Source of the DNA: Candidatus Bathyarchaeota archaeon RBG_13_60_20 | GTDB lineage: Archaea > Thermoproteota > Bathyarchaeia > TCS64 | Reading direction: 5' to 3' | Assembly: GCA_001775965.1 (NCBI GenBank) | Contig: MEZG01000068.1 | Coordinates: forward strand, 1 to 41,533 | Length of the DNA stretch: 41,533 nucleotides | Part shown: one piece after another, positions 11,942-33,413 of the stretch | Layout: every line of letters begins with the position of its first letter | Numbering within the stretch: position 1 is the stretch's first letter | Notes under the pieces: generated by a model | Told to the model about the DNA's origin: nothing | What the model saw: the letters and a program-made list of their open reading frames with translations, nothing else | Databases searched by the model: none | Program-made: the position numbers and the translations under genes

Positions 11942-11976
11942 GCTCGGGCGATCAACTTTAATGGGCTCCGTATGAT

Positions 11977-12786: not shown

Positions 12787-12797
12787 GAGGCTGGGCT

Positions 12798-13595
12798 GTG
12801 AAGATAGCTGTAGCGGGGAAGGGCGGCGTTGGTAAGACCTTCGTCTCATCCACCCTGTCCAGGCTGCTGGCCAGGGACGGGTATAACGTGCTGGCCGTGG
12901 ATGCTGACCCCAACCTGAACCTGGCCATGGGCCTGGGGGTCCCCTCCGAGGTTGCCAACGGGATCGTGCCGCTCTCCGACAATGAGGCCCTGGTCAAGGA
13001 GAGGACCGGGGTGTCAGCAGAGGAGGCGTACGCGCCCATCTTCAACATGACCCCCAGAGTCAACGACATAGTGGACAGGTTCGGGGTCACTGCGCCCGAC
13101 GGCGTCAAGCTCCTCGTGATGGGAACCGTCAAGGGCGGGGGCACAGGCTGCATGTGCGGCGCAAACGCGCTTCTCCGCGTCCTGCTGCAGCATCTGCTCA
13201 TCCAGCGTGGAGAGGTCCTGGTCATGGACATGGTGGCCGGCTTGGAGCACCTGGGCAGGGGCACGGCCAGGAGGATGGACGCCATGCTGGTGGTCCTGGA
13301 GCCCCGCATGAAGTCGGTGGACACCATCAGGCGCATCATGAGGCTGGCCCAGGAGATAGAGGTCAAGGAGGTGCTCGCCGTAGGCAACAAGGTGGCTAGG
13401 CCCAAGGACAGGGAGTTCATCCAGAGGAACATGGACGAGCTGGATGTGCCCGTGGTGGCCTACATCCCCTACGACGAGGCGGTGACCGACGCCGACATGG
13501 CCGGGGCGCCCACACTGGACTACGCTCCTGACTCAGAGGCCGTCAAGGCTGTCAGCGGCCTCAAGGGCTACCTCCTAGATCGGTACAAGCCGTAG
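12798..13595 (+). CDS. cooC: CO dehydrogenase maturation ATPase CooC
   Basis: KIAVAGKGGVGKT, DADPNLNL, GCMC and DMVAGLEHLGRGTA motifs; GGAGG upstream of the GTG start. Confidence 0.92.
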   Translation: MKIAVAGKGGVGKTFVSSTLSRLLARDGYNVLAVDADPNLNLAMGLGVPSEVANGIVPLSDNEALVKERTGVSAEEAYAPIFNMTPRVNDIVDRFGVTAPDGVKLLVMGTVKGGGTGCMCGANALLRVLLQHLLIQRGEVLVMDMVAGLEHLGRGTARRMDAMLVVLEPRMKSVDTIRRIMRLAQEIEVKEVLAVGNKVARPKDREFIQRNMDELDVPVVAYIPYDEAVTDADMAGAPTLDYAPDSEAVKAVSGLKGYLLDRYKP

Positions 13596-13613: not shown

Positions 13614-14453
13614 GTGAAGGTCAAGGCAGTCGGCATCAGGACGCGTTACTGGAGACCAGGGACCGATTACGTGGCGGAGATCGTGGGCAGGGTCAAGGGC
13701 CGCGTGGAGGACGGTGATGTGCTCGCCGTCAGCGAGAAGGCGGTGTCCACAGCCTCCGGCCTCATCGTGGACGAGGCGACGACGGAGCCCGGCATGGTCG
13801 CGCGGATTCTCGCGGGCCCTTGGACCAGGAGGATATGGGGCGGGCCCCTTGGGAGGATCACATGCCTCAAGGGGCAGACCCTCCTGAACCTGCGCAATTA
13901 TCCACTCCGCGAGGGGGCCGCCCACAAAGAGGTGGCTCTGCGCATCGCGGGCCTCCTTCAGTCGCTGCGCCACTACTCCGAGGGAGGCATAGACGCCAGC
14001 AACCTCCCCTACTCATACGTGAGCCTACCGCTACCCAACGCCGGCGCGGTGGCTGAGAGGATCAGGGACGCGGTGAAGGCCCGCACGGGCAGGGACGTCA
14101 CAGTGGTCATCGTCGACGGCGACACGACCTTCTCATGGAGGGGCCTTCACCTGGCCCCCCGCAAGGTACAGACGCCCGGCCTGGTGCACCTGGGGGGCTT
14201 CCTGGTCTTCGTCATGGGCAGAGCCCTCGGCCTAAGGCAGCGCCAGACCCCTGTGGCCGTATCGGGCGAACCTATGCCCCCGGACACGGCTCTGTGGCTG
14301 GCCAGGCTTCACCACAGGCTTTGCGGCCGCGGGGCCGGCAGGACCGTGTGGAGCATGTCGGCCAGGCTGGAGACCTCGCTGACGGGCGTAACATGGGAGA
14401 TGCTGGAATCTGTGAGGCACTACCCCGTGACCCTCATACGGTTCGTGGACTAG
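13614..14453 (+). CDS. Coenzyme F420-0:gamma-glutamyl ligase (CofE)-like family protein; substrate uncertain
   Basis: DGDVLAVSEKAVS, GGIDASNLP and VTVVIVDGD motifs of the F420_ligase fold. Confidence 0.78.
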   Translation: MKVKAVGIRTRYWRPGTDYVAEIVGRVKGRVEDGDVLAVSEKAVSTASGLIVDEATTEPGMVARILAGPWTRRIWGGPLGRITCLKGQTLLNLRNYPLREGAAHKEVALRIAGLLQSLRHYSEGGIDASNLPYSYVSLPLPNAGAVAERIRDAVKARTGRDVTVVIVDGDTTFSWRGLHLAPRKVQTPGLVHLGGFLVFVMGRALGLRQRQTPVAVSGEPMPPDTALWLARLHHRLCGRGAGRTVWSMSARLETSLTGVTWEMLESVRHYPVTLIRFVD

Positions 14454-16012
14454 AACAGGTCCTCGTCCTGCATGTAGGACCGCCCCAGCCGTAGGGCCAG
14501 GGCAGCCTTCTCAAGCTCCCTGCCCAGGTAGGCAGCGTGGTCCAGCTTGGTTACGAGGTTAAGGCGGATGATGGTCTGGTACACCTCCCTGGCGTCCACG
14601 CCCTTGATGATTGTCCCGGGCGCGTCGCTCCCCTGGAGGTAGTGTAGGGCTACTATCTCCCCGGCCTCCCTGTCCACTTGGACCTTGAACCACCCCGCCT
14701 CGTCGGGCCTGAAAACATCCTCGCCGACGGCCTCCGCGACTCGGGCCGATCCATAGAGGCTCCCGTCGTACGCCTCCTCCGTCCACCTCTTCTCCTTGAG
14801 CAGCAGCAGGTCCACGCCCAGGTCCTTGGGCACCGTCCCCTTCGCCTCCGCCAGAAACATCATCTGGGAGGCTCGGACAGCCTCCCGGACGCTGCCCCTC
14901 GCCTTGACGCTGTGCTCCGGGACATGCAGCATGTTGGCCCCGGCCTCCCGGGCAAGAGCCGCCAGGGTGGCGTTGACACCCTGGGAGTCGGCGTCGATGA
15001 GCTCTGTGGCGTTGCCTATGCCGAAGAGGAGCGGCACCCCGGGGCGCAGCTCCTTGAAGCGCCTGTAGCTCTCTAGCGCCACCAGCAGCCCGGGACGCAG
15101 GAGAGGCTCCGCGACTAGGTCGCCTATGACCCTGGTGACGCCCAGCTCCCTGGCCCGCTTGATGTTCTCGTCCAGGGCTCGGACCCTCTCCTGGGGAGTG
15201 CTGGGGAGACGACCCCGATTCATGTCCGTGGGGAGGACCACCACTGCCTGTTCGGTCAAGAGGGGCGCCGTTTCCTCCAGGTTCCCCGCGTCCACGCTTA
15301 GGACCAGGTCCACGCCGGCCTCCGCCGCGGCGCCTATCTCGGCGGGGTCAAGGGTGTCGATGCTCACCGGGAGCCCCGCGGCATCCCTCACGGCGGAGAC
15401 CAGGGGCCCGACGGCTTCGGGCCTCGGATCGCCCGCCAACATCCCTATGTCGATGACGTGGGCGCCCTGCCCCTTGTAGTACTTGGCCCTGTCGGCCACC
15501 TCGGCCAGGCTGAGGAGGGGGGCGCTCACCACCTCGGCTATGACTCTCATGGGCAGCCCGTCGCTGACCGGCAGAACGCGCTCTCCTCCGCCCACCACGA
15601 TGCCACCCCTGGACCTGAATACGCTTTCCCAGTCCGCCTCGGCCCTCTCCAGCTCCCCTAAGGTTCTCCTAGCCGCCTGGTCCCTGATGAGGTCCGATGC
15701 CGGGAGGGTCCTGGACAGCTGGACGCCCGATGACAGGGCCAGGGGTATGTCGGCGAAGTGGACCGGGCCCTTGTAGGTGGGGACCCCCGTGGCCTCCTCC
15801 ACACGCGACACGTCGCCGCTCACCGTCCCAGGCATCAGGATCATGTCATAGCCGTCAAGGTTCATTCGGCTGAGTGCGCTGGCCGCGAAGCCGGGGGTTA
15901 TGAACGAGGCCACGGACACGGGCAGGGCCTTGACGTCCACGCCACCGAGTCCATCCACCGCCCTTCGGACCGCCGCCTCGGCGAGCCTCCCTGTGACGAC
16001 GAGGACCCTCAA
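14450..16012 (-). CDS. Dihydropteroate synthase-related protein (archaeal MJ0107-like) with C-terminal DUF4346
   Basis: RVLVVTGRLA, VIAEVVSAP, GAHVIDIG, PVSIDTLDP, GIGNATELIDADSQGVNA, PKDLGVDLLLLKEKR and HAAYLGRELEKA motifs. Confidence 0.9.
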   Translation of the reverse strand: MRVLVVTGRLAEAAVRRAVDGLGGVDVKALPVSVASFITPGFAASALSRMNLDGYDMILMPGTVSGDVSRVEEATGVPTYKGPVHFADIPLALSSGVQLSRTLPASDLIRDQAARRTLGELERAEADWESVFRSRGGIVVGGGERVLPVSDGLPMRVIAEVVSAPLLSLAEVADRAKYYKGQGAHVIDIGMLAGDPRPEAVGPLVSAVRDAAGLPVSIDTLDPAEIGAAAEAGVDLVLSVDAGNLEETAPLLTEQAVVVLPTDMNRGRLPSTPQERVRALDENIKRARELGVTRVIGDLVAEPLLRPGLLVALESYRRFKELRPGVPLLFGIGNATELIDADSQGVNATLAALAREAGANMLHVPEHSVKARGSVREAVRASQMMFLAEAKGTVPKDLGVDLLLLKEKRWTEEAYDGSLYGSARVAEAVGEDVFRPDEAGWFKVQVDREAGEIVALHYLQGSDAPGTIIKGVDAREVYQTIIRLNLVTKLDHAAYLGRELEKAALALRLGRSYMQDEDLF

Positions 16013-16018
16013 ACGTGA

Positions 16019-16972
16019 TCAACCCTCGCGGATGACTGCGCCCACGTTGTCGGCGGCCGCGACGAATGCTTCGCCCCGCCCGTCCTTGTTGAGGAACCGT
16101 TCGAGGGACGCTGCAAGCCTCCCCGCCTGGGCCCGTCCTTCGGCCAGCCCGTAGAGAGCCGGCCCCCATGAGCTCTGGCCAGCGCCAAGGGCCCCCTCCG
16201 CCAGGAGGTAGTTCACCCCCGCCTCGATCCCGGGGTGGCTGTAGACGCCCCCCTGGACCTTGGCCCAGTACGAGCCGAACATAGTGTCCAGCTTGGTCAT
16301 GGCGTCCCCGAACCTCTCTATGTCAGGCTCTATGATGGACGGGATCATCTGGAGGAGCACCAGCCTAGCGACGTCGGCGACGACCTCGGCCGGCGGCGGC
16401 TCCAAGGCCCTGAATGCGGCCTTCTCCTGCTCGCCGCTGACCCCCCTCTTGATGTCCGGGATGCCTATAACGAACAGCCAGTCGTCAGGCACCCTGTGCC
16501 TGAAGACCAGTGGCGGCACGGCATCCCTGCGCGTCAAGGCGTGGCCACCGTCTACAATAAAGCCTCCCCCAAGGAAGGCGTGGACCCCTACCCCTGAGAC
16601 TCTGCTGCGGCCGAAGCGGACGGCGATCTCCTCCGGCTCTAGGCTCAGGTCGTGTAATCGTGCCAGGGCGGTGCCCAGGGCCATGACCAGCTGGGTGCCT
16701 GAGCCGAAGCCCGTGTGCTCGGGTATGTCCTCCACGATCTCCACGTCCACGCCAGAATCGACGCCGCCGTCCCTCAGGAGGGTCTCGACGATGTTCGCGG
16801 CCCTGTCCGACCTGGCGCCCCTGATCCTCGTCTCGCCGCTGTCACTGACCTTCACTGTGAGCCGCGGCCGATCCACGGCGACCCCCACGCTCCCGTGGAT
16901 CCTGCCCAGGTCGCCCCTCATGTCCACTATACCGAACTGCAGCCTCGACGGGGTGGTTATGCTGATCTCTAC
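16019..16972 (-). CDS. mptG: Beta-ribofuranosylaminobenzene 5'-phosphate (RFAP) synthase, GHMP superfamily; start codon uncertain
   Basis: TPSRLQFG, PEHTGFGSGTQL, SGVGVHAFLGGGFIVDGGH and GQSSWGP motifs; H4MPT gene context. Confidence 0.9.
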   Translation of the reverse strand, partial: VEISITTPSRLQFGIVDMRGDLGRIHGSVGVAVDRPRLTVKVSDSGETRIRGARSDRAANIVETLLRDGGVDSGVDVEIVEDIPEHTGFGSGTQLVMALGTALARLHDLSLEPEEIAVRFGRSRVSGVGVHAFLGGGFIVDGGHALTRRDAVPPLVFRHRVPDDWLFVIGIPDIKRGVSGEQEKAAFRALEPPPAEVVADVARLVLLQMIPSIIEPDIERFGDAMTKLDTMFGSYWAKVQGGVYSHPGIEAGVNYLLAEGALGAGQSSWGPALYGLAEGRAQAGRLAASLERFLNKDGRGEAFVAAADNVGAVIREG

Positions 16973-17616
16973 GCCGTTACCCTCCAGCTTGGTATCATGT
17001 CTTCTAGCTTGTCCACTACCGCGTGCTCGGGGGAGCCCTGTGGCGATACCCGCCTCACGGTCGCCGTGCACTCATCTATCTTCCGGATCAGCGCCTCGGC
17101 TTCCCCTCTCCGCCCCTGCTCGCTGAACGCCTTGACTCTCGTCGCGTGTATCACCGCCTCAACGGCCTGGTTCCTCCCCCTGCTGAAGACCGTGGGGTAC
17201 GCCTCGCCCACCGTTATCTTGACTGGCGTGGCGGTGAATAAACCCCTTTCGCCGAGTGTGGATGACTCCTGTTTCACCTCGACGATGATCGTTGAATCCG
17301 CCCCCATCAGCCTCATGTCGGGCTCCACGTGCGGCTGGTCCTCGATCTCGTCCTTAAAGGCCGTGGCTAGGAAGAGCAGGGGATCGAGGGTGGTGTTGAT
17401 GGAAGCCCTGCCTCCTCTCATCAGGTTCGCGTAGGTGGCGCTGGTCCTGTAGGGGCTCAGTCCGAGGTGCCGCCCCATCAGTCTGACGCCCATGGGCGCG
17501 GCGTTGAACGAGCCGTCGCTGTTCACCGTGACCAGTATTGTCTCCACTACGGCGCCCTGGGTGAAGCCCATCTTCGCAAGCGTCCCGATCAGATCAGACA
17601 TATCTGTGGAGGCCAA
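16969..17616 (-). CDS. DUF447 family protein (H4MPT-linked; FMN split-barrel-like)
   Basis: ETILVTVNSDGSFNAAPMGV, TSATYANL and RGRNQAVEAVIHATRV motifs; start could be ATG 17601. Confidence 0.85.
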   Translation of the reverse strand: MASTDMSDLIGTLAKMGFTQGAVVETILVTVNSDGSFNAAPMGVRLMGRHLGLSPYRTSATYANLMRGGRASINTTLDPLLFLATAFKDEIEDQPHVEPDMRLMGADSTIIVEVKQESSTLGERGLFTATPVKITVGEAYPTVFSRGRNQAVEAVIHATRVKAFSEQGRRGEAEALIRKIDECTATVRRVSPQGSPEHAVVDKLEDMIPSWRVTA

Positions 17617-17655: not shown

Positions 17656-18660
17656 TTATGGGGGTTCTAGGGGGATCATGTAGTCGCGGGCTCCACCTAG
17701 AACGACTCTGAGGCGACCATCCGGGCCCCTGACCTTCTCCAGTGTACCCCGTATCTCCACCCTCTCCCCCGCCAAGGCCTGCTCAGTGAACTTGCCCCTG
17801 TAGCTCACGGCCTCGCTCACCTGCCCCAGCCCCTCGGGTTCAACGGGTTCAAGCATGCCTAACTGGTAGCTGCAAGGCGTGAATATGGAGCACGAGGAGT
17901 CCGTGACTCTGGCTCTGAAGACGGCCTCGCCGACGGGGGCTGAGGGGGCGGCATCGGGCTCAGGCCTCAGGAGCCGTATGAAGTAGTCTCTGCCGTCGAC
18001 CCTGCCGTGCAGCACCTTCCTGACCTCTACCTCCGCCAGGGCGTCCAGATCGACGCCCGCCTTGCCCCATCTGCGTAACAGGACCTCCTTGACCGTCTCA
18101 GCGTCGTACGGCTGAACCCAGCCCTTCCTGCTTCTCAGCAGCCTCAGCGCCTTGTAGACTGAGCGGCCTTCGTCCGCCCCGTACACGTTGAGGTCCACGT
18201 CGGAGCCTTCCCGGTTGAGGCCAATGAGAAGCGACCCCGATACGCCGAAGCTCCTTGTGGGCACGCCGCTTCCATTGCTTAGGGCCTCGACCAGCCTCTT
18301 GACCGTCGCCTCAAGGCCGGGCTGAGGCTTCTGGAGAACATGCCCAAGCCTCTCCCTGGGGTCGTACATCCTCTCGATGCGTTTAAGGGGCACGGTCTGC
18401 AGGGTGAGGCCGAGCATAGGCACGTGGTTCAGGTATTGGGGGTGGCGGAGCCTCAGGTACTCGGTGGTCTCGTCGGGGTCGCTCACCCTCCTGTACCTGA
18501 CGCCGTCGAGGACCCTATCGCCCTCCTCATCTGGGATGTAGCGGAGGTAGGCGATGACCATGCTGTCTGGGTGTCTGCTCCCCTTCACAGCGAAGAAGAG
18601 GCCCTCGGCGGTCCTGATGTAGTCGCCCTCGTTGTACTCCTGGAAGCTGATCATACCCAA
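17656..18660 (-). CDS. Predicted nucleotidyltransferase (Pol-beta superfamily, COG1665-like), paralog 1
   Basis: FGVSGSLLIG...SDVDLNVYG (GS...DxD) motif; N-terminal EGLFFAVKGSRHP...AYLRY; C-terminal OB-like GERVEIRGTLEKV. Confidence 0.82.
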   Translation of the reverse strand: MGMISFQEYNEGDYIRTAEGLFFAVKGSRHPDSMVIAYLRYIPDEEGDRVLDGVRYRRVSDPDETTEYLRLRHPQYLNHVPMLGLTLQTVPLKRIERMYDPRERLGHVLQKPQPGLEATVKRLVEALSNGSGVPTRSFGVSGSLLIGLNREGSDVDLNVYGADEGRSVYKALRLLRSRKGWVQPYDAETVKEVLLRRWGKAGVDLDALAEVEVRKVLHGRVDGRDYFIRLLRPEPDAAPSAPVGEAVFRARVTDSSCSIFTPCSYQLGMLEPVEPEGLGQVSEAVSYRGKFTEQALAGERVEIRGTLEKVRGPDGRLRVVLGGARDYMIPLEPP

Positions 18661-18692
18661 GTATTAACTTGTGACTGGCGGGCCCTATATAT

Positions 18693-19655
18693 TTGAGCAG
18701 CGTGGTGCAGCCATTGGGCGGTGTAGGCAGCTTGGTGGGTGGGTGCGCGTCCCTTGCGGCCCTCCTGGAGGTGTCGGCGTACCCTAAGCCTGGGAACGTG
18801 CACCGCCTTAGGGACTTCGATGGGACGCGCTACGAGCACTTCCTCGCGGGAGGAGTCTCCCTGGCCCCGTGGATGGCCGCGCTCGCCGACGAAGGCGCCC
18901 GCGTCAAGGCACAGGGCGGCGGCTGGGAAGGCATCCGACTCGGAGAGCACATACTTGGGGCGGTGGAAGACATGACGCGGTGGCAGAAGGGCGGGAACAC
19001 CCACCTGGGCGTCATCCTTCTCTTCGCGCCCGTGGCCGCTGCGGCAGGCGCCTCGCTGGAGAACGGCAGAGCGGATCCCAAGAGGCTCAGGGAGAACCTG
19101 TTGGACGCCGTGGCCGCCGCGACGCCCGGCGACGCAGCCGACATCTACAGGGCCATAGGCGCGGCTATGACCAGGGAGAACTTGGGCTCCGTTGAAAGGC
19201 TCGACGTCTCGGACTCCTCGTCCATAGACTACATACTGAGGCGGGGTGTCACGCCCCTTGAGATATTCCAGGAATGCTCGGGGCGGGACGCGATATGCGG
19301 AGAGTGGGCCACGGGCTTCAGTGTGACGTTCGAGGAGGGGTACACCTACCTGGCGGATCGGCTGCTTTCCGGCTCTGTTAACGACTCTGTAGTGGACACG
19401 TTCCTGCGCATCCTCTCAAGGCACCCTGACTCGCTGATACGGAGGAAGAGGGGGGAGGAGGCCGCGAGAGCTGTGAGCGAGAAGGCCCAGAGGGTTCTGG
19501 ACAGCGGGGGCGCCTCAAGCGACGAGGGGCGAAGGCTGCTGCTCGAATTGGACGACGAGCTTCAGGCTGGAGGGGGGGAGCTGAACCCTGGCACCTCCGC
19601 CGACCTTACGGCGTCCTCACTGTTCGTGAACCTGCTAGGCGGGTGGAGGCCCTAG
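18693..19655 (+). CDS. Triphosphoribosyl-dephospho-CoA synthase (CitG) family protein, archaeal H4MPT-linked type
   Basis: LLEVSAYPKPGNVHR, GNTHLGVILLFAP, PDSLIRRKRG and LNPGTSADLTA motifs. Confidence 0.9.
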   Translation: MSSVVQPLGGVGSLVGGCASLAALLEVSAYPKPGNVHRLRDFDGTRYEHFLAGGVSLAPWMAALADEGARVKAQGGGWEGIRLGEHILGAVEDMTRWQKGGNTHLGVILLFAPVAAAAGASLENGRADPKRLRENLLDAVAAATPGDAADIYRAIGAAMTRENLGSVERLDVSDSSSIDYILRRGVTPLEIFQECSGRDAICGEWATGFSVTFEEGYTYLADRLLSGSVNDSVVDTFLRILSRHPDSLIRRKRGEEAARAVSEKAQRVLDSGGASSDEGRRLLLELDDELQAGGGELNPGTSADLTASSLFVNLLGGWRP

Positions 19656-20083
19656 GACGAGTACTGGCGCAGGTAGTGGGGGTACGTCTCGCAGAACTCC
19701 CTGATGCCCTCCTCGGTCACAAGGCCCCTCACGGTCCTGTGCTCCTGGACCCCGAGGCAGCCGATGCCGTACTTCCTCATCACGCCTAGGGCGTCGTTCA
19801 GGGGCGTGTCTATGTCCACAGTGATGAGGGGCACCGATACCAGGTCCTTCACGAGGAGGCTGGCCTTGTCCTCGGTCTCGATGAGCCACCTCATGATGTC
19901 CTTGTTCGTTATTAGGCCGATGGGGTCCTGGTCCTCGTAGACGATGAGCGCCTCGTAGTCCTCCCCCATGAGCTTGCGGGTCACCTCGATGAGCCTATCC
20001 TCGGCCCTTGCCATTGGGGGAGCCTTGTTCATGAGGACCCTGCAGGGGAGGCCGCAGAACTCGGAGTTAAGCTGGATGCCCAT
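19652..20083 (-). CDS. CBS domain pair protein
   Basis: PIGLITNKDI, VKDLVSVPLITVDIDTPLNDALGVM and GLVTEEGI motifs. Confidence 0.85.
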   Translation of the reverse strand: MGIQLNSEFCGLPCRVLMNKAPPMARAEDRLIEVTRKLMGEDYEALIVYEDQDPIGLITNKDIMRWLIETEDKASLLVKDLVSVPLITVDIDTPLNDALGVMRKYGIGCLGVQEHRTVRGLVTEEGIREFCETYPHYLRQYSS

Positions 20084-20227: not shown

Positions 20228-20734
20228 TTGGACTCAGGTAGCGGCATCATGTTCGTGGGAAAGAAGACGAAGCCAAACGCGGTCTACGAGGCGATAAGGG
20301 CACATCTACCGGCTGACAGCGGCAAGGTGGTCATAGCCAGCCACAAGGGGAAGTCGGCGCTGAAGCTGGCCGAGACCCTCGGGAAGCAGGCCCAAGTGGT
20401 GAGCGTCACCGAGTTCACCTACGACGACGACACCAAGAAGGAGATGAAGAAGCTGAACGTCGTCCCCGTGGAGAAGGCCGAGCTGCCCGTACAGGACGAC
20501 AGGGGGATGAGGGAGACCCTGCTCATGTTCGGGTCGGGTGTGAAGGCAGCCCTGGAGGTGGCCACAGTCGCGTCGGGGAAGAAGCTGGTGAAAGGCGAGT
20601 TCATAGTCGTCGCGGGGGAGAAGGAGGGCTTCGACACCGTGCTGCTCCTGGACACGGAGCACCCCCAGAAGGAGCAGATATCTGACCCGCTGAAGCACAT
20701 CAAGGTGAAGAGGTTCATCGCTCTCCCTGAGTAG
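20228..20734 (+). CDS. Pyruvate kinase C-terminal-like stand-alone protein (COG1751/DUF1867-like)
   Basis: KVVIASHKGKSALKLAE, ETLLMFGSGVKAALEVA and GFDTVLLL pattern; GAAAAAAGTTATA promoter-like element ~30 bp upstream. Confidence 0.7.
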   Translation: MDSGSGIMFVGKKTKPNAVYEAIRAHLPADSGKVVIASHKGKSALKLAETLGKQAQVVSVTEFTYDDDTKKEMKKLNVVPVEKAELPVQDDRGMRETLLMFGSGVKAALEVATVASGKKLVKGEFIVVAGEKEGFDTVLLLDTEHPQKEQISDPLKHIKVKRFIALPE

Positions 20735-21211: not shown

Positions 21212-22159
21212 GTGCTGAGCGTCAACAGGCTGGCATACGAGCTTGTGTCGGAACTTGTCAAGAGGAAGGAGTACTACAGGGTAGAGGTCGATAAGCTGCC
21301 GTCGGGGGCCACCGTGGTAGACACGGGGGTGGAGGCCCACGGCGGATACGAGGCGGGCCTCATGGTCACCCGCATAGCCATGGGAGGGGCCGGGAGCGCG
21401 CACCTCTCGTATGCAGACTACGGCGGGGTCGGGCTGCCCTCGGTGGTGGTCTCCACGGACTGCCCGGCTGTAGCTCTCTTCGGGGCCCAGCTTGCTGGGT
21501 GGAAGATAAAGCCTGAGGGGTACTCGGCGGACAGCTCGGGCCCGGCCCGCGCGCTGGCCCTGAAGCCCAAGGAGGTGTACCAGAAGATAGGCTACAGGGA
21601 CGAGTCGGACGTGGCCGTCATCCTGCTGGAGACCGAGGAGAAGCCCCCGGACTCGGCGGCCCACTACATAGCCGAGAGGTGCAACGTGAAGCCCGAGAAC
21701 GTGTACATGGTCCTCACCTCCACCAGGTCCATGGCGGGGATGGTGCAGATATCGGGCAGGATAGTCGAGACAGGGCTCTTCAGGCTCGACGTGCTAGGCC
21801 TGGACCCCAAGAAGGTGCTTTACGGGGCGGGGTACGCGCCTATCATGCCGGTCCACGTAGACGCGGGGAAGGCCATGGGCAGGGCCGAGGATGCCCTGAC
21901 TTACGGTGGGGTCACCACGTACTTGGTGGATGAGGCCGAGGACAAGCTCAGGGAGGTCGCCGAGAAGGCGCCCAGCAGCAACTGCAAGGACTACGGCAAG
22001 ACCAGCTACGAAATCTACAAGGCCGTGGACTTCGACTTCACCAGGATCGACCCGGCCCTCTTCGCCCCCGCGGCCATATCCCTGACCTCTGCCCAGACCG
22101 GGGCGACCTTCACCTACGGCAAGGTCAACGACCGTATAATCTTACATTCATTGAAGTAG
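21212..22159 (+). CDS. mch: Methenyltetrahydromethanopterin cyclohydrolase
   Basis: LSVNRLA, GAQLAGW, SGPARALALKPKE, VQISGRIVETG, SSNCKDYGK and DFTRIDPALFAPA motifs. Confidence 0.96.
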   Translation: MLSVNRLAYELVSELVKRKEYYRVEVDKLPSGATVVDTGVEAHGGYEAGLMVTRIAMGGAGSAHLSYADYGGVGLPSVVVSTDCPAVALFGAQLAGWKIKPEGYSADSSGPARALALKPKEVYQKIGYRDESDVAVILLETEEKPPDSAAHYIAERCNVKPENVYMVLTSTRSMAGMVQISGRIVETGLFRLDVLGLDPKKVLYGAGYAPIMPVHVDAGKAMGRAEDALTYGGVTTYLVDEAEDKLREVAEKAPSSNCKDYGKTSYEIYKAVDFDFTRIDPALFAPAAISLTSAQTGATFTYGKVNDRIILHSLK

Positions 22160-22163
22160 ATCG

Positions 22164-22571
22164 GTGTCTGAGATGAACGGGATCGAGGTTACACTGATTT
22201 CGGGGAGGACGGCGAGGCAGGGCATAGGCCTGGAAGAGGGCAAGACGTCCCAGGGCTACATCAAGAGCGTTAATGAGGTTAGCCTGTGCCCAGAGGACGC
22301 AGCGAGCCTGGGCCTCAGCGGGGACGAACCTGTGACGGTGGCCACGGAGCACGGCAGCGTGGTGGCGCACTGGAGGGTGGACAAAGGGCTGGCCCGGGGA
22401 ACCGCGTTCTTCCCCTACGGGCCGTGGGCCAACCAGGTGTACGCGTCGTCCACGGACGGCACCGGCATGCCCCAGTTCAAGGGGATAAGGGCCACCCTAT
22501 CCCCAGCCGCGGGCGGCAAGGTGCCGTCACTCCAGGAGATCGTGGAGTCCATGAGGAGAGCGGAGCATTGA
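22164..22571 (+). CDS. fwdD: Formylmethanofuran dehydrogenase subunit D (molybdopterin dinucleotide binding)
   Basis: LISGRTARQG, FFPYGPWAN and TDGTGMPQFKGI motifs. Confidence 0.93.
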   Translation: MSEMNGIEVTLISGRTARQGIGLEEGKTSQGYIKSVNEVSLCPEDAASLGLSGDEPVTVATEHGSVVAHWRVDKGLARGTAFFPYGPWANQVYASSTDGTGMPQFKGIRATLSPAAGGKVPSLQEIVESMRRAEH

Positions 22572-23854
22572 AGCACGAGGACGTGGTCTGCCCCTTCTGC
22601 GGGTGCCTGTGCGACGACCTGGAGGTGACCGTGGAGGACGGCCACATCGTGGGCGTCAAGAACGCGTGCGGCATATCCCGGTCCAAGTTCATGAGCCACG
22701 GCCTCAACCGGGTCTCCGCCCCCACAGTGGAGGGGAAGGAGGCCTCGCTCGAAGAGGCCGTGAGGGAGTCGGTGGGTATACTCTCAGGAGCCAGGAGGCC
22801 CCTGGTTTACGGCCTCAGCTCCACGGAGTGCGGCGCCATCAGCAAGGCGGTCGAGCTGGCGGAGGCCACGGGCGGCGTCCTGGACAACACCTCGTCCGTG
22901 TGCCATGGCCCCACGATACTGGCCCTCCAGCAGGTGGGCGAGAGCAAGGCGACCCTGGGCGAGATCAGGAACAGGGCCGACCTCATCATCTTCTGGGGGA
23001 GCAACCCCACGGAGGCCCACCTGCGCCACATCACAAGGTACAGCGGGACGGCTAAGGGCATGTACGTGCCTGAGGGCAGGAAGGGCCGCAGGATCATAGT
23101 GGTCGACGTCAGGGAGACGGGCACCTCGAAGATGGCCGATCAGTTCATCAAGGTGGAGCCCAACGGGGACTTCGAGTTGCTCGAGGCGCTGAGGGCTACG
23201 GTTAGGGGCGTGGCGCTGCGGGCGGAGGCCGTGGCGGGGGTGCCCATGGACCAGGTCAGGGCGCTGGCCGAGGTCATGAAGGGGGCCAGGTTCGGGGTCG
23301 TGTTCTTCGGGCTGGGGCTCACCCAGAGCGAGGGCAGGCACATGAACATAGACGCGGCCGTCGGCCTGGTGGCCGAGCTGAACAGGCACACCAAGTTCCT
23401 GCTCACCCCCATGAGGGGCCACTACAACGTGGCGGGGGCCAATGCGGTGACCACCTGGCAGACGGGGTACCCCTACGCGGTGGATTTTAGCCGTGGCTAC
23501 CCCAGGTACAACCCGGGGGAGTACACCTCGGTGGACATGCTGGCCAGGGGCGAGGCCGACGCGGCCCTGGTGCTGGCCTCGGACCCGGCGTCCACGTTCC
23601 CCGTGGACGCTGCCAGGGGCTTGGCCAAGATACCGGTGATCACCCTTGAGCAGAAGATCACTCCCACATCCATGCTGAGCAGGGTGGTGATACCGGTGGC
23701 CACCGCGGGCATAGAGGCCGAGGGAACGGCCTACAGGATGGACGGGGTCCCCATAAGGCTGAGGAAGCTGGTGGAGCCCACTGAGGGGGTCCACTCGGAC
23801 GAGGAGGTGCTCGGGATGATCCTTGAGGGGCTTAAGGGAGGCGCCGAGAAGTGA
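22568..23854 (+). CDS. fwdB: Formylmethanofuran dehydrogenase subunit B (W/Mo-pterin, Cys-ligated)
   Basis: TTG 22568 overlaps the fwdD stop (TTGA); CPFCGCLCDD, SSVCHGP, TLGEIRNRAD, PMRGHYNVAG and GTAYRMDGVP motifs. Confidence 0.96.
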   Translation: MKHEDVVCPFCGCLCDDLEVTVEDGHIVGVKNACGISRSKFMSHGLNRVSAPTVEGKEASLEEAVRESVGILSGARRPLVYGLSSTECGAISKAVELAEATGGVLDNTSSVCHGPTILALQQVGESKATLGEIRNRADLIIFWGSNPTEAHLRHITRYSGTAKGMYVPEGRKGRRIIVVDVRETGTSKMADQFIKVEPNGDFELLEALRATVRGVALRAEAVAGVPMDQVRALAEVMKGARFGVVFFGLGLTQSEGRHMNIDAAVGLVAELNRHTKFLLTPMRGHYNVAGANAVTTWQTGYPYAVDFSRGYPRYNPGEYTSVDMLARGEADAALVLASDPASTFPVDAARGLAKIPVITLEQKITPTSMLSRVVIPVATAGIEAEGTAYRMDGVPIRLRKLVEPTEGVHSDEEVLGMILEGLKGGAEK

Positions 23855-25554
23855 AGGAGCTTGCGATCAGGAACGGCTACGTCTTCGACCCTCTGAACGG
23901 CGTCGACGGCGAGAAGATGGACATCCTCCTCAGCGGGGGCAGGGTCGTTGAGAAGGTGAAGCGCGGCGCCGAGGAGATTGACGCCTCGGGGATGGCGGTG
24001 ATGCCCGGCGGCGTGGACCTCCACAGCCACATCGCGGGCAGCAAGATCAACATCGGGCGCCTCATGAGACCCGAGGACCACAGGAGGGACCAGGTGCCCA
24101 AGGGCAGGGTCACCCGGAGCGGCGTGGGCTACAGCTGCCCCAGCACCTTCGTCACCGGGTACAGGTACGCACAGATGGGTTACACAACGGTCATGGAGGC
24201 GGCCATGCCGCCCATAACAGCCAGGCACGTCCACGAGGAGCTGGCCGACACCCCCATCATAGACAAGGGCGCCTTCACCCTCATGGGCAACAACTACTTC
24301 ACCCTCAAGTACGTCCGCGACGGCGACATGGAGAAGCTGAAGGCCTTTGTCGCCTGGCTGCTCCGGGCCACCCGCGGCTACGCCGTCAAGATTGTGAACC
24401 CGGGCGGCGTGGAGAACTGGAAGTGGGGCCGCAACGTCCACGGCCTGGACGGCAACGTGGAGGACTACGGCATCACGCCTAGGCAGATCATATCCAGCCT
24501 GGCAAGGGTGAACGAGGAGCTGGGCCTGCCCCACACCATCCACCTCCACTGCAACAACCTGGGGGTGCCCGGCAATTACCAGACCACCATCGACACCATG
24601 GACGTGGCCAAGACGATTAAACCCAGGGACGAGAGGAAGACGACCATACACGTCGTCCACTGCCAGTTCAACGCCCTGGCGGGCAACAACTGGATGAACG
24701 TCAGGTCGGGAGCCCCCAAGATAGCCAGGTACGTGAATGGGAACCCCCACGTGACCTTGGACCTGGGCCAGGTCATCTTCGGGGACACCACAACAATGAC
24801 TGGGGACGGCCCCTGGCAGTTCAACCTCTGGAACATGACGGGCAACAAGTGGGTCAACAGCGACGTGGAGATGGAGGCGGGGGCCGGCGTAGTCCCCTAC
24901 ACGTTCAAACCAAACAACCCGGCCAACAGCGTCCAGTGGGGCATAGGCATCGAGCTGGCCCTCCTGGTGAAGGACCCATGGAGGGTCTATATGACCACAG
25001 ACCACCCCAACGGGGGTCCCTTCACCCACTACCCCGAGGTCATCGCGTGGCTGATGAGCAGGAAGGCCAGGACCGACGCAATGAACGCCATGAACAAGGC
25101 GGTGATGAAGCGCACCGGCCTCATAGACAATTACAGGGAGTACACGTTCAGCGAGATGGCCATAGCCACCAGGGCCGGCACGGCAAGGGCGCTTGGCCTG
25201 GAGGGCAAGGGCCACCTGGGGCAGGGGGCCGACGCGGACGCCGCCGTTTACAGGGTCAACCCCACCCAATGGCGCCCCAGCCAGTATAAGGAGCTGGAGA
25301 AGGCTTTCAGCAGGGCGGCCTACACAGTCAAGGCTGGCGAGGTCGTGGTCAAGGACGGCGAGGTCGTGGCGACCCCCACGGGGGCCACCCACTGGGTGAA
25401 CGCCAAGGTACCCGAGGACCTCGAGAAAGAGTTCATAAAGGACTTCGAGGCCGATTTCCGGAAGTACTACTCCGTCAGCCTGCGCAACTACCCAGTGGAG
25501 GACGCGTACCTGCCGGCTCAGAGGGTCCACGCGGCGGGAGGTGCCTCGCCGTGA
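23851..25554 (+). CDS. fwdA: Formylmethanofuran dehydrogenase subunit A (amidohydrolase)
   Basis: VDLHSHIAG, RPEDH, GYRYAQMGYTT, VKIVNPGG, HLHCNNLG and TTDHPNGGPF motifs. Confidence 0.97.
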   Translation: MKELAIRNGYVFDPLNGVDGEKMDILLSGGRVVEKVKRGAEEIDASGMAVMPGGVDLHSHIAGSKINIGRLMRPEDHRRDQVPKGRVTRSGVGYSCPSTFVTGYRYAQMGYTTVMEAAMPPITARHVHEELADTPIIDKGAFTLMGNNYFTLKYVRDGDMEKLKAFVAWLLRATRGYAVKIVNPGGVENWKWGRNVHGLDGNVEDYGITPRQIISSLARVNEELGLPHTIHLHCNNLGVPGNYQTTIDTMDVAKTIKPRDERKTTIHVVHCQFNALAGNNWMNVRSGAPKIARYVNGNPHVTLDLGQVIFGDTTTMTGDGPWQFNLWNMTGNKWVNSDVEMEAGAGVVPYTFKPNNPANSVQWGIGIELALLVKDPWRVYMTTDHPNGGPFTHYPEVIAWLMSRKARTDAMNAMNKAVMKRTGLIDNYREYTFSEMAIATRAGTARALGLEGKGHLGQGADADAAVYRVNPTQWRPSQYKELEKAFSRAAYTVKAGEVVVKDGEVVATPTGATHWVNAKVPEDLEKEFIKDFEADFRKYYSVSLRNYPVEDAYLPAQRVHAAGGASP

Positions 25555-26477
25555 GCTTCAAGCACAACGGGGTGGACGTCGAGGACACCTTCGCGGAGGG
25601 CTTCGGCATGTGGGGTAGCCGCATCATCATAACGGCCGCGTCCGAGAGGTGGGCCACCACAGCCGCCGGCTCTATGACGGGGTTCGCCACCAGTGTCATC
25701 GCATGCGACTGCGAGGCCGGCGTGGAGTCTTCGGTAGCGCCGGACAGTACCCCCGATGGGCGCCCCGGCGTCGCCGTCATGGTTTACGGGTTCAGCAAGG
25801 GCAAGCTGTCCGAGAGCATGTTGAGCCGGATGGGCCAGTGTGTCCTCACATGCCCCAGCACGGCCGTGTTCAATGGACTGCCGGAGGAGGAGGCCGACGA
25901 GATGCTAGACATCGGGAAGAGCCTCAGGTTCTTCGGGGACGGGTACCAGGTCAAGATGAGGATGGGGGACGGCTGGCACCAGAGGCGCCGCTTCTGGAGG
26001 ATACCCGTCATGGAGGGCGAGTTCCTGGTGGAGGAGAAGATGGGGGCCAAGAAAGCGGTGGCCGGGGGCAACTTCCTGGTGATGGGAGAGACACAGGACG
26101 CGGTCCTGAGGGCAGCTGAGGCGTCCATAGACGCCATCCACACGGTGCCCGGCGTGGTAACGCCGTTCCCCGGCGGCCTCTGCAGGAGCGGCAGCAAGGT
26201 GGGCTCCACATACAAGTTCCTGAAGGCGGCCACCAACACGCCCTTCTGCCCTACCATAAAGAACAGTGTCAAGGGCAGCAAGGTGCCGTCGGGCGCCAAC
26301 TCGGTCATCGAGGTGGTGATCAACGGTCTCAACGAGGCGTCTGTGAAGCGGGCCATGGGGGTGGGCGTGGACGCCGCCACCAGGGTTCCGGGTGTCACAT
26401 GGATCACGGCGGTCAACTTCGACGGCAAGCTGGGGAAGTTCAAGATGGGGCTGAGGGACAGCCTGGAGGCGATCTGA
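25551..26477 (+). CDS. ftr: Formylmethanofuran--tetrahydromethanopterin N-formyltransferase
   Basis: EDTFAEGF, TGFATSVIACDCEAG, TPDGRPG, GQCVLTCPSTA, FFGDG, RIPVMEGEF and RSGSKVGS motifs. Confidence 0.97.
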   Translation: MSFKHNGVDVEDTFAEGFGMWGSRIIITAASERWATTAAGSMTGFATSVIACDCEAGVESSVAPDSTPDGRPGVAVMVYGFSKGKLSESMLSRMGQCVLTCPSTAVFNGLPEEEADEMLDIGKSLRFFGDGYQVKMRMGDGWHQRRRFWRIPVMEGEFLVEEKMGAKKAVAGGNFLVMGETQDAVLRAAEASIDAIHTVPGVVTPFPGGLCRSGSKVGSTYKFLKAATNTPFCPTIKNSVKGSKVPSGANSVIEVVINGLNEASVKRAMGVGVDAATRVPGVTWITAVNFDGKLGKFKMGLRDSLEAI

Positions 26478-26478
26478 T

Positions 26479-27327
26479 ATGGATAAGCTGGTGCTAACGC
26501 CTAGGGGATTCAGCAGAGTACCCTTGGAGGCGGAGGTGATAACGCCAGACGCCTTCGCCGGCAAGTCCGTAAAGGAGATTAGGGCCCTGAGGGTCCACTA
26601 CGGCAACAGGGAGGTGGAGATGAGCGAGTATATCCATGTCCAGGGTAAGGTGGCCGACGCCCCGGTCGACCAGCTCATCGTCGTCGACGGGGACGCAAGG
26701 CACATCAAGTATATCGGCAGGGGGATGACCGCGGGTCGAATAGTGGTCCAGGGCGACGCCGGTATGCACACGGGCTCCCAGATGAGCGGCGGGGACATAA
26801 CTGTGGCGGGAGACGCAGGCGACTGGACCGGCGCCGAGATGAGGGGCGGCCTCCTCAGGGTGCTGGGCGACGCCGGGAACCTCCTAGGCGCCGCGTACAG
26901 GGGCAGCAGCGAGGGCATGACCGGCGGATGCATAATTGTCAACGGCAGCGCCGGTTCCGAGGTCGGCAGCTTCATGAGGAGAGGCATGATGGTGGTTGAG
27001 GGCGCCACTGGTCCCTTCACAGGCGTACATATGAACGGCGGCGAGATATTCGTCTTCGGCCCCCTGGGCAGGCGCGCCGGGGCCCAGGCCAAGGGCAACG
27101 GCGGCTTCATAGCGGCCCTCGGCGGCGCCCGGGAGGTGTTACCCACCTACGTCTACGAGGCCACCTACGCCCCCGGCTTCATGACGCTCTACATGAGGCA
27201 GCTGGCAGAGAACCTGGGCGTCAAACACGCCGCCAGGTACATCGGGGAGCCCCTCAGGAGGTACAGGGGCGACATGGCCATCGGCGGTAGCGCCGAGATA
27301 CTGGTCGCCGAGAAGGGGGCCCCTTGA
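26479..27327 (+). CDS. fwdC: Formylmethanofuran dehydrogenase subunit C (beta-helix)
   Basis: PLEAEVITPD, repeated GxxMxGG motifs and LGAAYRGSSEGMTGG. Confidence 0.95.
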   Translation: MDKLVLTPRGFSRVPLEAEVITPDAFAGKSVKEIRALRVHYGNREVEMSEYIHVQGKVADAPVDQLIVVDGDARHIKYIGRGMTAGRIVVQGDAGMHTGSQMSGGDITVAGDAGDWTGAEMRGGLLRVLGDAGNLLGAAYRGSSEGMTGGCIIVNGSAGSEVGSFMRRGMMVVEGATGPFTGVHMNGGEIFVFGPLGRRAGAQAKGNGGFIAALGGAREVLPTYVYEATYAPGFMTLYMRQLAENLGVKHAARYIGEPLRRYRGDMAIGGSAEILVAEKGAP

Positions 27328-28196
27328 GGGTAGGCATCATCGCCTCCGACCGCAGGGAGTGGCACGTGGGCCTGCTCTTAAGGGAGCTCAGGGCGAGGGG
27401 AGCCGAGGCTTACCTCCTCCCTGTCACCAGCTTCCGCGCATCCGTAGGCCGCGAGCCGAGGCTCACGGTGAAGGGCTACGGCGTGGACGACTACGACGCG
27501 GTCATCGTGCGCCGAGTACCAGGCGGCTCCGCCGAGCAGGTGTTCTACAGGATGGACGCCCTCCACAGGCTGGAGGACACGGGGGTCCTGGTGGTGAACC
27601 CTGCCCTGAGCATCGAGAGGGCCGTGGACAAGTACTACACCTCGGCGCTGCTTGAGGACGCCGGGATCAGGACGCCCCGCACCGTGGTCACCGAGAGCTT
27701 CGCAGAGGCCATGGTGGCCTACGAGGAGCTGGGAGGCGACGTGGTGGTTAAGCCCCTCTTCGGCAGCCTCGGCATGGGGATAACCAGGGTCTCCGACCCC
27801 GACCTTGCCCACAGGGTGTTCAGGGCCCTGGAGATGACCAGAAGCGTCTACTACGTCCAGGAGTTCATCAGGCACCCCGGCGTCGACCACAGGGTATTCG
27901 TCATCGGGGGCTCTATCGCGGCGTCCATGCGCCGCGTGGCCAGGGGCTGGAAGACCAACATCTCGGGTGGCGGCAGAGCCGAGCCCTATACGCCCAGCGA
28001 AGAGGTCGCCGAGGCGAGCCTCAGGGCCACCGAGAAGCTGGGCCTCATCTACTCAGGCGTCGACATCATAGTCTCGGAGGAGGGGGAGGCGTACGTCGTT
28101 GAGCTCAACAGCACTCCGGGATGGGAGGGCCTTCAATCTGTTACGGAAGTGGACATCGCGGTGCGCCTCGTCGACCACGTGCTGTCACTGATGTGA
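27324..28196 (+). CDS. RimK-family ATP-grasp glutamate ligase (MptN / Orf5-like)
   Basis: GGSAEQVFYRMDALH, ERAVDKY, VVKPLFGSLGMG, YVQEFI, WKTNISGGG and ELNSTPGW motifs. Confidence 0.9.
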   Translation: MRVGIIASDRREWHVGLLLRELRARGAEAYLLPVTSFRASVGREPRLTVKGYGVDDYDAVIVRRVPGGSAEQVFYRMDALHRLEDTGVLVVNPALSIERAVDKYYTSALLEDAGIRTPRTVVTESFAEAMVAYEELGGDVVVKPLFGSLGMGITRVSDPDLAHRVFRALEMTRSVYYVQEFIRHPGVDHRVFVIGGSIAASMRRVARGWKTNISGGGRAEPYTPSEEVAEASLRATEKLGLIYSGVDIIVSEEGEAYVVELNSTPGWEGLQSVTEVDIAVRLVDHVLSLM

Positions 28197-28202
28197 GGGA
28201 CC

Positions 28203-29219
28203 GTGTTGAAGCCGAAGGACAGGGACTTCGTGGAGACCGTCGAGGGGCACCTGTTCTGCGTGGTGGGGTACCTGCACCCCCCGGAAGGCTATACGGCGTA
28301 CCTCAAGTACGTGCCGGCCCCGGTGGGGAAGTGGGGCCGAGGCGAGGCCAGGTACACCAGGACCCTTCCCTTCTACCACGTCTCCCAGGTGGAGAACACG
28401 TACAGTTACCTCAGGGAGAACTACCCCAAGTACCTGATCGACTGTCCCGTACGCGGCTTCACGGTCTCCTATGTGCCCAGGCCCAGCGTCAGGAGGTACT
28501 ACAGGCCCCGGAAGGTACTCAGGGAGATCATGGCTAGGGGCGCAGTGGACCCCCTGGAGGAGAAGCTGCTGAGGCTGGCGGGGCTTCTCACGGATGAGTC
28601 GGGCGTAAGGGGCCTAGGCGTGACGGGCTCCATATTGACTGGCATCCACAACCCCGACTTCTCCGACATTGACCTCACAGTCTACGGTGCCGGCCCGTCT
28701 AGGAGGCTCAAGGACGCCGTGCTGAGGTTGAGGAACGAAGGCGACAGGGTGCAGCCTCCAACGCGTCAAGAGATAGAGTCGTGGTGCCGCGAGAGGATCA
28801 GCAAGTTCCCCCTGACTGTGGATGAGCTGAGACGGGTCGCCGAGACGAGGTGGAACTACGGGTTCTACACGGGCACCTACTTCTCGGTGCACCCCACCAG
28901 GGCGGACAGGGAGATCACCGAGGCGTACGGGGATAACACGTACCGCAGGGTCGGAGAGGTCAGCGGCTCGGCGACGGTGGCCGATGCCTCCGAGTCCATG
29001 TTCCTGCCCGCGTTCTACCGTGTCGAGGACGCCGCGCTGCCCGGCGGCGTCGAGGCGGAGCGCCTGGTCTCCTACGAGGGGCTCTACGGCGGCGTATTCG
29101 CTGAGGGGGATCGGGTAGAGTTCAGAGGCGCCTTGGAAAAGGTGGAGGGAAAGAACCCGGGCCACCAGGTTGTGGTCGGGGGGGCCGGCTCCCCAGCCGG
29201 CTACATAAGGTGGGCCTAG
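28203..29219 (+). CDS. Predicted nucleotidyltransferase (Pol-beta superfamily, COG1665-like), paralog 2
   Basis: LGVTGSILTG...SDIDLTVYG motif; N-terminal DRDFVETVEGHLFCVVGYLHPP...AYLKY; C-terminal GDRVEFRGALEKV. Confidence 0.82.
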   Translation: MLKPKDRDFVETVEGHLFCVVGYLHPPEGYTAYLKYVPAPVGKWGRGEARYTRTLPFYHVSQVENTYSYLRENYPKYLIDCPVRGFTVSYVPRPSVRRYYRPRKVLREIMARGAVDPLEEKLLRLAGLLTDESGVRGLGVTGSILTGIHNPDFSDIDLTVYGAGPSRRLKDAVLRLRNEGDRVQPPTRQEIESWCRERISKFPLTVDELRRVAETRWNYGFYTGTYFSVHPTRADREITEAYGDNTYRRVGEVSGSATVADASESMFLPAFYRVEDAALPGGVEAERLVSYEGLYGGVFAEGDRVEFRGALEKVEGKNPGHQVVVGGAGSPAGYIRWA

Positions 29220-30631: not shown

Positions 30632-30635
30632 AGCT

Positions 30636-31964: not shown

Positions 31965-31969
31965 GCGGG

Positions 31970-33412: not shown

Positions 33413-33413
33413 T

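Follow-up and report, generated by a model that had tools for sequence, protein, structure and literature searches.

A CitG-like gene of the Orf7 type in a bathyarchaeal tetrahydromethanopterin island, a candidate for a step of methanopterin side-chain synthesis

Introduction

The closest described relatives of the gene considered here are, on the one hand, CitG and MdcB, the ATP:dephospho-CoA 5''-triphosphoribosyl transferases (EC 2.4.2.52) of citrate lyase and malonate decarboxylase, with their partners CitX and MdcG, and, on the other, Orf7 of the bacterial tetrahydromethanopterin (H4MPT) islands, e.g., those of Methylorubrum, Methylosinus, Methylomonas, Azospirillum and Phyllobacterium. 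In the CitG reaction, ATP is reportedly attacked at C1' (work of Dimroth), with loss of adenine and formation of a 5-triphosphoribosyl alpha-glycoside. H4MPT is the one-carbon carrier of methanogenesis, of anaerobic methane oxidation, of the archaeal Wood-Ljungdahl pathway and of formaldehyde oxidation in bacteria, and enzymes have been assigned to the early steps of methanopterin synthesis. For the attachment of the second ribose or of the phospho-hydroxyglutarate, we found no assigned enzyme in the literature searched. Here we analyze a 41,533-nucleotide contig (MEZG01000068.1, hereafter the window) of Candidatus Bathyarchaeota archaeon RBG_13_60_20, in which a CitG-like gene is paired head-to-head with a gene for a nucleotidyltransferase (NTase), NT1, that has a paralog, NT2, elsewhere in the window. 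The initial annotation of this DNA had proposed a role for the CitG-like gene in methanopterin synthesis. No literature joining CitG with methanopterin was found, but most subscription journals lay beyond the search, so we make no claim for the novelty of the idea; in the literature searched, triphosphoribosyl-dephospho-CoA and tetrahydromethanopterin are co-mentioned merely as gene listings.

The CitG-like gene groups with Orf7

The frame from 18693 to 19655 on the forward strand is open without an internal stop, and its product matches the Pfam CitG family (PF01874; E 1.1e-71, 242.3 bits against a gathering cut-off of 27) over positions 3-283 of 284, with all six of the six invariant columns of a 42-sequence family alignment present. 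The recorded protein (P0004) has 313 amino acids and begins with TTG at 18714; as an 89% identical ortholog (P0005) starts at the same position, this TTG, rather than 18693, is likely to be the start. The closest homologs bear Bathyarchaeia names.

Comparison with CitG and MdcB points to a shared family but not to an equivalog. At the level of profiles (hhalign), the homology between the subfamily and E. coli CitG extends over the full length (probability 98.3%, E 1.5e-14, 263 columns, 25% identity), and four CitG motifs are retained, namely PKPG-V-R, (G)NT-xG, D-x(4,5)-R-xG and PG-(S/T)-ADL. Set against the curated equivalog models of CitG and MdcB, the protein falls below every cut-off (TIGR03125, 58.9 vs 272.3 bits; NF007503, 27.7 vs 477; NF002315, 64.3 vs 280; TIGR03132, 54.9 vs 282.35), and these models align only with its C-terminal third (about 80-115 residues), whereas the two CitG models give E. 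coli CitG 363 and 649 bits. At 20-44 bits, Orf7 from Azospirillum, Orf7 from Phyllobacterium and a CitG-domain protein of Natrinema likewise stay below the cut-offs. The archaeal profile matches Azospirillum Orf7 with a probability of 99.9% (hhalign; E 1.2e-35, 36% identity), placing the protein, by sequence comparison, nearer to bacterial Orf7 than to true CitG. In a tree of 25 rows, the two bacterial Orf7 are sister to the archaeal rows and E. coli CitG sits on a very long branch; as the only true CitG included, it leaves this tree uninformative on monophyly.

The AlphaFold model of the protein is of high confidence (predicted local distance difference test, pLDDT, 95.2). Its sole solved relative, by sequence or fold, is PDB 3h9p, a structural-genomics entry from Archaeoglobus fulgidus named as a putative triphosphoribosyl-dephospho-CoA synthase (target-normalized template-modeling score 0.88-0.90; sequence E 1.8e-20, and E 4e-51 against the subfamily profile). 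With 249 residues, 3h9p is shorter than the protein studied here and aligns to residues 38-319 of the query. We take A. fulgidus to be a user of H4MPT. By these sequence comparisons, we assign the gene to an Orf7-type branch of the CitG family that includes 3h9p, and not to the CitG or MdcB equivalogs. Weak rows of likeness between the model and the ADP-ribosylhydrolase ARH3 (probability 0.10-0.18) were treated as noise. A search for longer CitG-like relatives (561-2000 amino acids) returned no fusion proteins, which is weak evidence, and the long frames around the CitG-like matches in two loci (L110, L111) hold the CitG domain alone, with an extra N-terminal part that has no Pfam match.

Partners of a dephospho-CoA enzyme are not found

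If the gene made the precursor of a citrate-lyase or malonate-decarboxylase prosthetic group, an acyl carrier protein (ACP) and a transferase would be its natural partners. A Pfam scan of the 45 large open reading frames (ORFs) of the window yielded no citrate-lyase or malonate-decarboxylase gene, and CitX (PF03802), ACP (PF06857) and MdcG (PF10620) were found in none of five genomes, comprising the window's own genome (1.22 Mb in 86 contigs, with a completeness of 64%) and four relatives from the same class, each 100% complete and carrying the CitG-like gene. Among 14 control genomes, the CitG family occurs in E. coli and four archaea, and ACP and CitX in E. coli only. The description of the locus in the initial annotation, as an intact CitG-family gene with no citDEF, citX or mdc genes nearby, thus agrees with the Pfam match and the uninterrupted frame and extends to the whole window; an ACP target in the genome, which that annotation had named, together with the use of dephospho-CoA, as evidence to the contrary, is found in none of the five genomes, the window's own being 64% complete.

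It remains very improbable, in our judgment, that the gene encodes a true triphosphoribosyl-dephospho-CoA synthase acting for an unrecognized ACP. The Pfam family and the automatic database names would suggest such an enzyme, but equivalog scores of 28-64 bits against cut-offs of 272-477, the lack of ACP, CitX and MdcG in the five genomes (four of them complete) and the restriction of ACP and CitX to E. coli in controls where four archaea carry the CitG family all speak against it.

Neighborhoods of CitG-like genes in other genomes

A locus scan with a 12-sequence alignment yielded 80 loci, the frames of which were searched with the window proteins. About 60 of these are from Bathyarchaeia and the rest from Asgard, Methanomethylicia, Thermofilaceae, Hydrothermarchaeota and three bacterial-binned contigs; many are short contigs of close kin, and the counts below are accordingly not independent. 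At least one marker of H4MPT or methanofuran lies within 10 kb of the CitG-like gene in 44 of the 80. An NT gene is present within 10 kb in 53 and within 2.5 kb in 43, and is adjacent and divergent, as in the window, in 32; none was seen in the available DNA of the remaining 27. Across these loci and three bacterial or haloarchaeal plasmids, the methanopterin-type neighbors are mptG, DUF447, a dihydropteroate-synthase-like gene, mch and a RimK-like ligase.

Certain arrangements recur across distant hosts. The RimK-like ligase stands directly upstream on the same strand in five loci (Thermofilaceae, Odin, Methanomethylicia and two Baldr), and the order mch, RimK-like, CitG-like is displayed by five archaeal loci from four lineages. 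The H4MPT islands on plasmids of Azospirillum brasilense and Phyllobacterium zundukense are ordered mch, RimK-like ligase, CitG-like, fae, and the same order appears in the accessible gene listings for Methylosinus (PMC3615186) and Methylomonas (PMC11533326). The locus studied here therefore shares with the bacterial Orf7 both the subfamily and the mch and RimK-like neighbors, and the earlier statement that orf7 homologs sit in methylotroph H4MPT clusters is borne out by the plasmid islands together with those listings, as far as the latter are accessible. In the accessible part of Hemmann et al. 2021 (PMC8141765), growth on methanol is reported to require every gene of the Methylorubrum extorquens cluster. 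The CitG-like genes of Natrinema and of one family in the window's phylum (L110) have DUF447 directly downstream, the ends of the two genes overlapping as in an operon. Bathyarchaeia-like CitG-like genes, with 42-56% identity to the query in the best tblastn segment, also occur in three bacterial bins, of Krumholzibacteriaceae, Patescibacteria and Deferrimicrobium (L014, L021 and L082), which are probably mis-binned.

Co-occurrence ties the gene to the pterin

We examined co-occurrence in 301 genomes of the phylum that are at least 80% complete, counting the NT family with a 25-sequence profile at E <= 1e-10 and RFAP synthase at E <= 1e-15, a cut-off of our own choice that falls in a gap between 4.9e-9 and 3.5e-16, the weaker matches being other GHMP kinases. 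The CitG family is present in 145 and RFAP synthase in 116 of these genomes (111 with both, 34 with CitG only, 5 with RFAP synthase only and 151 with neither). Co-occurrence with the NT family is tighter: 138 genomes have both, 7 CitG only, 9 the NT family only and 147 neither. The co-occurrence analysis suggested in the initial annotation thus comes out in favor of both links, RFAP synthase accompanying CitG in 111 of 145 genomes and the NT family in 138 of 145; the latter, along with the 32 adjacent and divergent pairs among the 80 loci, also upholds the connection it had drawn to the neighboring NTase.

Among 20 of the 34 CitG-positive genomes without RFAP synthase that were examined, NT genes lie within 10 kb of the CitG-like gene in 17, and fwd, mch or ftr in 10. 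Many genomes of this class (e.g., G012, G130, G137 and G243, loci L085-L088) carry fwd, mch and ftr. The organisms concerned still use the cofactors. Where the NT family is missing, the CitG-like gene adjoins mch in two of the seven genomes concerned.

The controls help to separate the pterin from the furan. The same four archaea, namely M. jannaschii, M. acetivorans, H. volcanii and S. acidocaldarius, have CitG, RFAP synthase and DUF447, and FTR and MfnB, a methanofuran enzyme, were detected in the two methanogens only; as CitG accompanies RFAP synthase and DUF447 in H. volcanii and S. acidocaldarius, where neither FTR nor MfnB was detected, the gene is tied to the pterin and not to methanofuran. 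For the bacterial islands, the accessible part of Hemmann et al. 2021 (PMC8141765) has orf5, orfY and orf17 serving methylofuran and gives Orf22, Orf21 and Orf9 as homologs of MfnB, MfnE and MfnF; Orf7 goes unmentioned in that part.

The NT nucleotidyltransferases and the divergent spacer

The NTase paralogs recognized in the initial annotation are real: NT1 and NT2 share 33% identity (E 2e-41). With PF01909, they score 19.7 and 24.5 bits, respectively, against a cut-off of 21, and NT1 has no Pfam or NCBIfam family above cut-off. A GS...DxD motif is recognizable, in which G142, S143, D154 and D156 are invariant across 25 relatives. The model of NT1 (pLDDT 91.8) comprises an N-terminal beta-rich domain, a Pol-beta palm and a C-terminal oligonucleotide/oligosaccharide-binding (OB) fold. 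The palm (residues about 111-233) aligns with Pol beta, Pol X, TdT and terminal uridylyltransferases at middling Z-scores of 7.2-7.8; the OB fold (Z about 8) resembles those of SSB, RPA and the anticodon domains of tRNA synthetases. On the evidence of this catalytic motif and the predicted fold, we place NT1 and NT2 in the Pol-beta-type nucleotidyltransferase superfamily. At E <= 0.001, Foldseek found nothing that matches the NT1 model, its hits being confined to OB folds, and VIA-align yielded no whole-protein match; CitX and MdcG are absent from the latter's match list, which excludes nothing. Neither NT1 nor NT2 matches the CitX or MdcG families of Pfam at E <= 5, and hhalign detects no likeness in sequence between the NT profile and E. 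coli CitX (probability 0.3%), a comparison that leaves a likeness of fold alone undecided. Unlike CitG with CitX, the CitG-like gene is hence neighbored by a different, three-domain NTase.

The NT family reaches beyond methanopterin and is not bound to one step of its synthesis, because genomes carry 2-5 paralogs of it (from one to six matches in the phylum sample) and because relatives occur on Streptomyces plasmids. Full-length relatives (about 30% identity; E 9e-35 against the profile, hhalign) are encoded on 22 such plasmids, where they come after a gene for an APH-family kinase and a gene of no known family (e.g., the SAT1 plasmid, L115:6980-8008); in one record, a gene for an S-adenosylmethionine-dependent methyltransferase then follows, and no CitG-like or methanopterin gene was found near these loci. 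In another genome (L109:1850-4159; G123:C77), a single frame of 769 amino acids joins an NT domain to an M20 peptidase/amidohydrolase domain; NT genes are present in this genome, but a CitG-family match is not. The plasmid records of Azospirillum, Phyllobacterium and Natrinema, the only replicons searched for these organisms, gave no NT match while the positive control was detected; the CitG-like gene, paired here with NT1, thus differs from the bacterial Orf7, which has no NT gene on the same replicon in either of the two plasmid records. To our knowledge, no enzyme has been assigned to the activation step of the archaeal phenol-to-aniline conversion, which the NTases could equally serve and which would be their chief alternative role. 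This route is cited in PMC3261824, in which PurB was shown to act in it.

The divergent arrangement of NT1 and the CitG-like gene noted in the initial annotation holds, but not the 32 bp given for it: with the CitG-like start at TTG 18714 and that of NT1 at ATG 18654, where the alignment of NT1 with its relatives begins, a spacer of 59 bp (18655-18713) is more likely. It contains a palindromic TATATAT (18686-18692) about 25 nt ahead of TTG 18714, which may be an archaeal TATA box, possibly a promoter element shared by both genes, with a leaderless CitG-like transcript.

Predicted role and alternatives

We posit that the CitG-like gene very probably acts somewhere in the synthesis of a methanopterin-type pterin; its role would be in building the methanopterin side chain and not the prosthetic group of citrate lyase or malonate decarboxylase. 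As for the step, reasoning from the chemistry of the family, we favor the transfer of an ATP-derived alpha-(tri)phosphoribosyl group onto the ribitol of a pterin intermediate, a prediction we hold to be evenly poised between right and wrong. The enzyme would take ATP, displace adenine at C1' and transfer the 5-triphosphoribosyl group with inversion to form an alpha-glycoside on the terminal hydroxyl of the 1-(4-aminophenyl)-1-deoxyribitol part of the intermediate, thereby installing the alpha-ribofuranosyl unit of methanopterin. The presumed acceptor would thus be a pterin-arylamine ribitol instead of the dephospho-CoA of CitG; we infer donor, acceptor and product alike from the known reaction of the family. 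The ribose linkage of methanopterin is alpha, and an inverting transfer from beta-ATP gives alpha, as in the product of CitG. The pterin made by M. extorquens, according to the accessible part of Hemmann et al. 2021 (PMC8141765), is dephospho-H4MPT, in which only the phosphate and the hydroxyglutarate are missing. The bacteria with Orf7 end at dephospho-H4MPT and yet retain the gene, which fits a role at the ribose.

A triphosphate product would further let an NTase-type enzyme form the phosphodiester to hydroxyglutarate. In this extension, the CitG-like enzyme and the NT paralogs would build the whole ribose-5-phospho-(2-hydroxyglutarate) tail by a logic like that of CitG and CitX, in which an ATP-derived triphosphoribosyl group goes onto a hydroxyl and its triphosphate may next serve another enzyme, with ATP and not phosphoribosyl pyrophosphate (PRPP) as the donor; the Pol-beta-type NTase would let the hydroxyl of 2-hydroxyglutarate attack the alpha-phosphate, with release of pyrophosphate. 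We advance this scheme for the tail only tentatively, and the coupling of the NTase to hydroxyglutarate is likewise doubtful, given the 2-5 NT paralogs per genome and the relatives on Streptomyces plasmids; the parallel with CitG and CitX goes no further than analogy, since no resemblance in sequence between NT1 and E. coli CitX is detectable.

Several observations weigh against the ATP-dependent transfer to the ribitol. White's cell-extract pathway of 1996 is said to name PRPP, and not ATP, as the ribose donor. RFAP synthase is undetected at our cut-off in 34 of the 145 CitG-positive genomes, and many genomes have a second RFAP-synthase paralog, a possible PRPP-dependent transferase. Related genomes are not independent, with about 60 of the 80 loci being from Bathyarchaeia, and a change of acceptor is unreadable from sequence because the acceptor-binding residues of CitG are not known. 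Moreover, orf17, which like orf5 and orfY serves methylofuran, had once been proposed for H4MPT synthesis (as stated in the accessible part of PMC8141765); since island genes thus serve methylofuran as well, linkage within an island does not fix the cofactor.

The gene might therefore belong to the methanopterin side chain but act at another step or with another donor, e.g., in a PRPP-dependent transfer, a (pyro)phosphoryl transfer or the transfer of a ribosyl group to a different hydroxyl, the alpha-ribosylation then falling to another enzyme such as an RFAP-synthase paralog. The evidence from linkage, taken whole, is compatible with any step of the pathway, several genomes (e.g., G239, G295, G226 and G202) have two strong RFAP-synthase-family matches, and PRPP is the reported donor in extracts; however, the retention of all four motifs of E. 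coli CitG suggests the same handling of the nucleotide, an inverting transfer that starts from alpha-PRPP would lead to a beta linkage, unlike the alpha linkage of methanopterin, and the window's own genome, at 64% completeness, has a single RFAP-synthase-family gene. We regard this alternative as rather unlikely, though it deserves to be taken seriously. An assignment of the CitG-like gene and the NT paralogs to methanofuran, to another cofactor or to a ribosyl or nucleotidyl modification of RNA appears improbable to us. The OB fold of NT1, with its resemblance to those of SSB, RPA and anticodon domains, and the 22 Streptomyces plasmids with NT relatives outside an H4MPT context would fit it, as would the three methylofuran genes of the bacterial island (accessible part of PMC8141765). 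Set against these are the controls, in which CitG tracks RFAP synthase and DUF447 where FTR and MfnB are undetected, and the position of the CitG-like gene beside mch, which is seen also where a genome has no NT genes. With regard to methanofuran in particular, we know of no ribose in the known methanofurans.

The H4MPT island of the window

Taken as a whole, the window forms a single large gene island for a Wood-Ljungdahl pathway of the H4MPT type (Table 1). In its central part, the genes are ordered CofE-like, dihydropteroate-synthase-like, RFAP-synthase-family, DUF447, NT1, CitG-like, CBS, mch, fwdDBA, ftr, fwdC, RimK/MptN-like and NT2, the mch-fwd-ftr block encoding users of H4MPT and methanofuran. 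The CBS-pair gene is conserved in 16 of the 80 related loci, and an adjoining ORF of 168 amino acids (20228-20734), to which neither Pfam nor NCBIfam assigns a family, recurs in 18 of them. The CofE-like paralog, a further candidate for the same pathway, accompanies the CitG-like gene in 25 of the 80 loci and is convergent directly downstream of it in 10. A CODH/ACS operon (29216-36304) with a MTHFR-like gene beside it (36437-37381), two CooC-type ATPases and a RACo-like activator (10109-13595), fibrillarin and pyruvate:ferredoxin oxidoreductase are also encoded.

Table 1. Features of the window around the CitG-like gene (positions are those of the window)
Feature	Coordinates	Strand	Basis
CofE-like (F420_ligase family) paralog	13614..14453	+	PF01996 E 5e-18; TIGR01916 48 bits vs 181
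Dihydropteroate-synthase-like protein (DUF6513 + Pterin_bind + DUF4346)	14450..16012	-	TIGR00284 372 bits vs 257
beta-RFAP synthase family gene (mptG type)	16019..17071	-	TIGR00144 182.6 bits vs 113.5
DUF447 (flavin-binding split-barrel-like)	16969..17616	-	PF04289 E 1.7e-21
NT1, three-domain Pol-beta-type nucleotidyltransferase, undescribed family	17656..18654	-	frame to 18660; likely ATG 18654
Divergent spacer	18655..18713		read from sequence; TATATAT 18686-18692
CitG-like gene (Orf7 type)	18714..19655	+	PF01874; open frame from 18693; 313 aa; start from P0004/P0005
CBS-pair protein	19652..20083	-	PF00571 E 3.5e-16; convergent with CitG-like gene, 4-nt overlap
mch, fwdD, fwdB, fwdA, ftr, fwdC	21212..27327	+	Pfam MCH, Molydop_binding, Molybdopterin, Amidohydro_3, FTR, GXGXG
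RimK/MptN-like ATP-grasp glutamate ligase	27324..28196	+	NF040720 MptN 265 bits (below cut-off 350); TIGR00768 196 vs 143
NT2, paralog of NT1	28203..29219	+	33% identity to NT1, E 2e-41; PF01909 24.5 bits

Implications for methanopterin synthesis

The CitG-like gene is an unexceptional representative of a family that has been known for a long time, and its genomic context is very clear; since the name Orf7 has long been in use for the CitG homolog of H4MPT islands, the window adds one more instance of it and not a new kind. The gene makes a good candidate for a pathway step to which we found no enzyme assigned. Were the prediction true, a CitG-type reaction would explain the alpha linkage of methanopterin and supply an activated 5-triphosphate for the step that follows; were the scheme for the whole tail true as well, two steps would be filled and the textbook donor would be revised. 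The candidates are small soluble proteins with a solved ortholog (3h9p) and thus directly testable in vitro. Their assignment would complete the pathway of a cofactor that is of interest as a target for methane mitigation and for the heterologous engineering of one-carbon metabolism.

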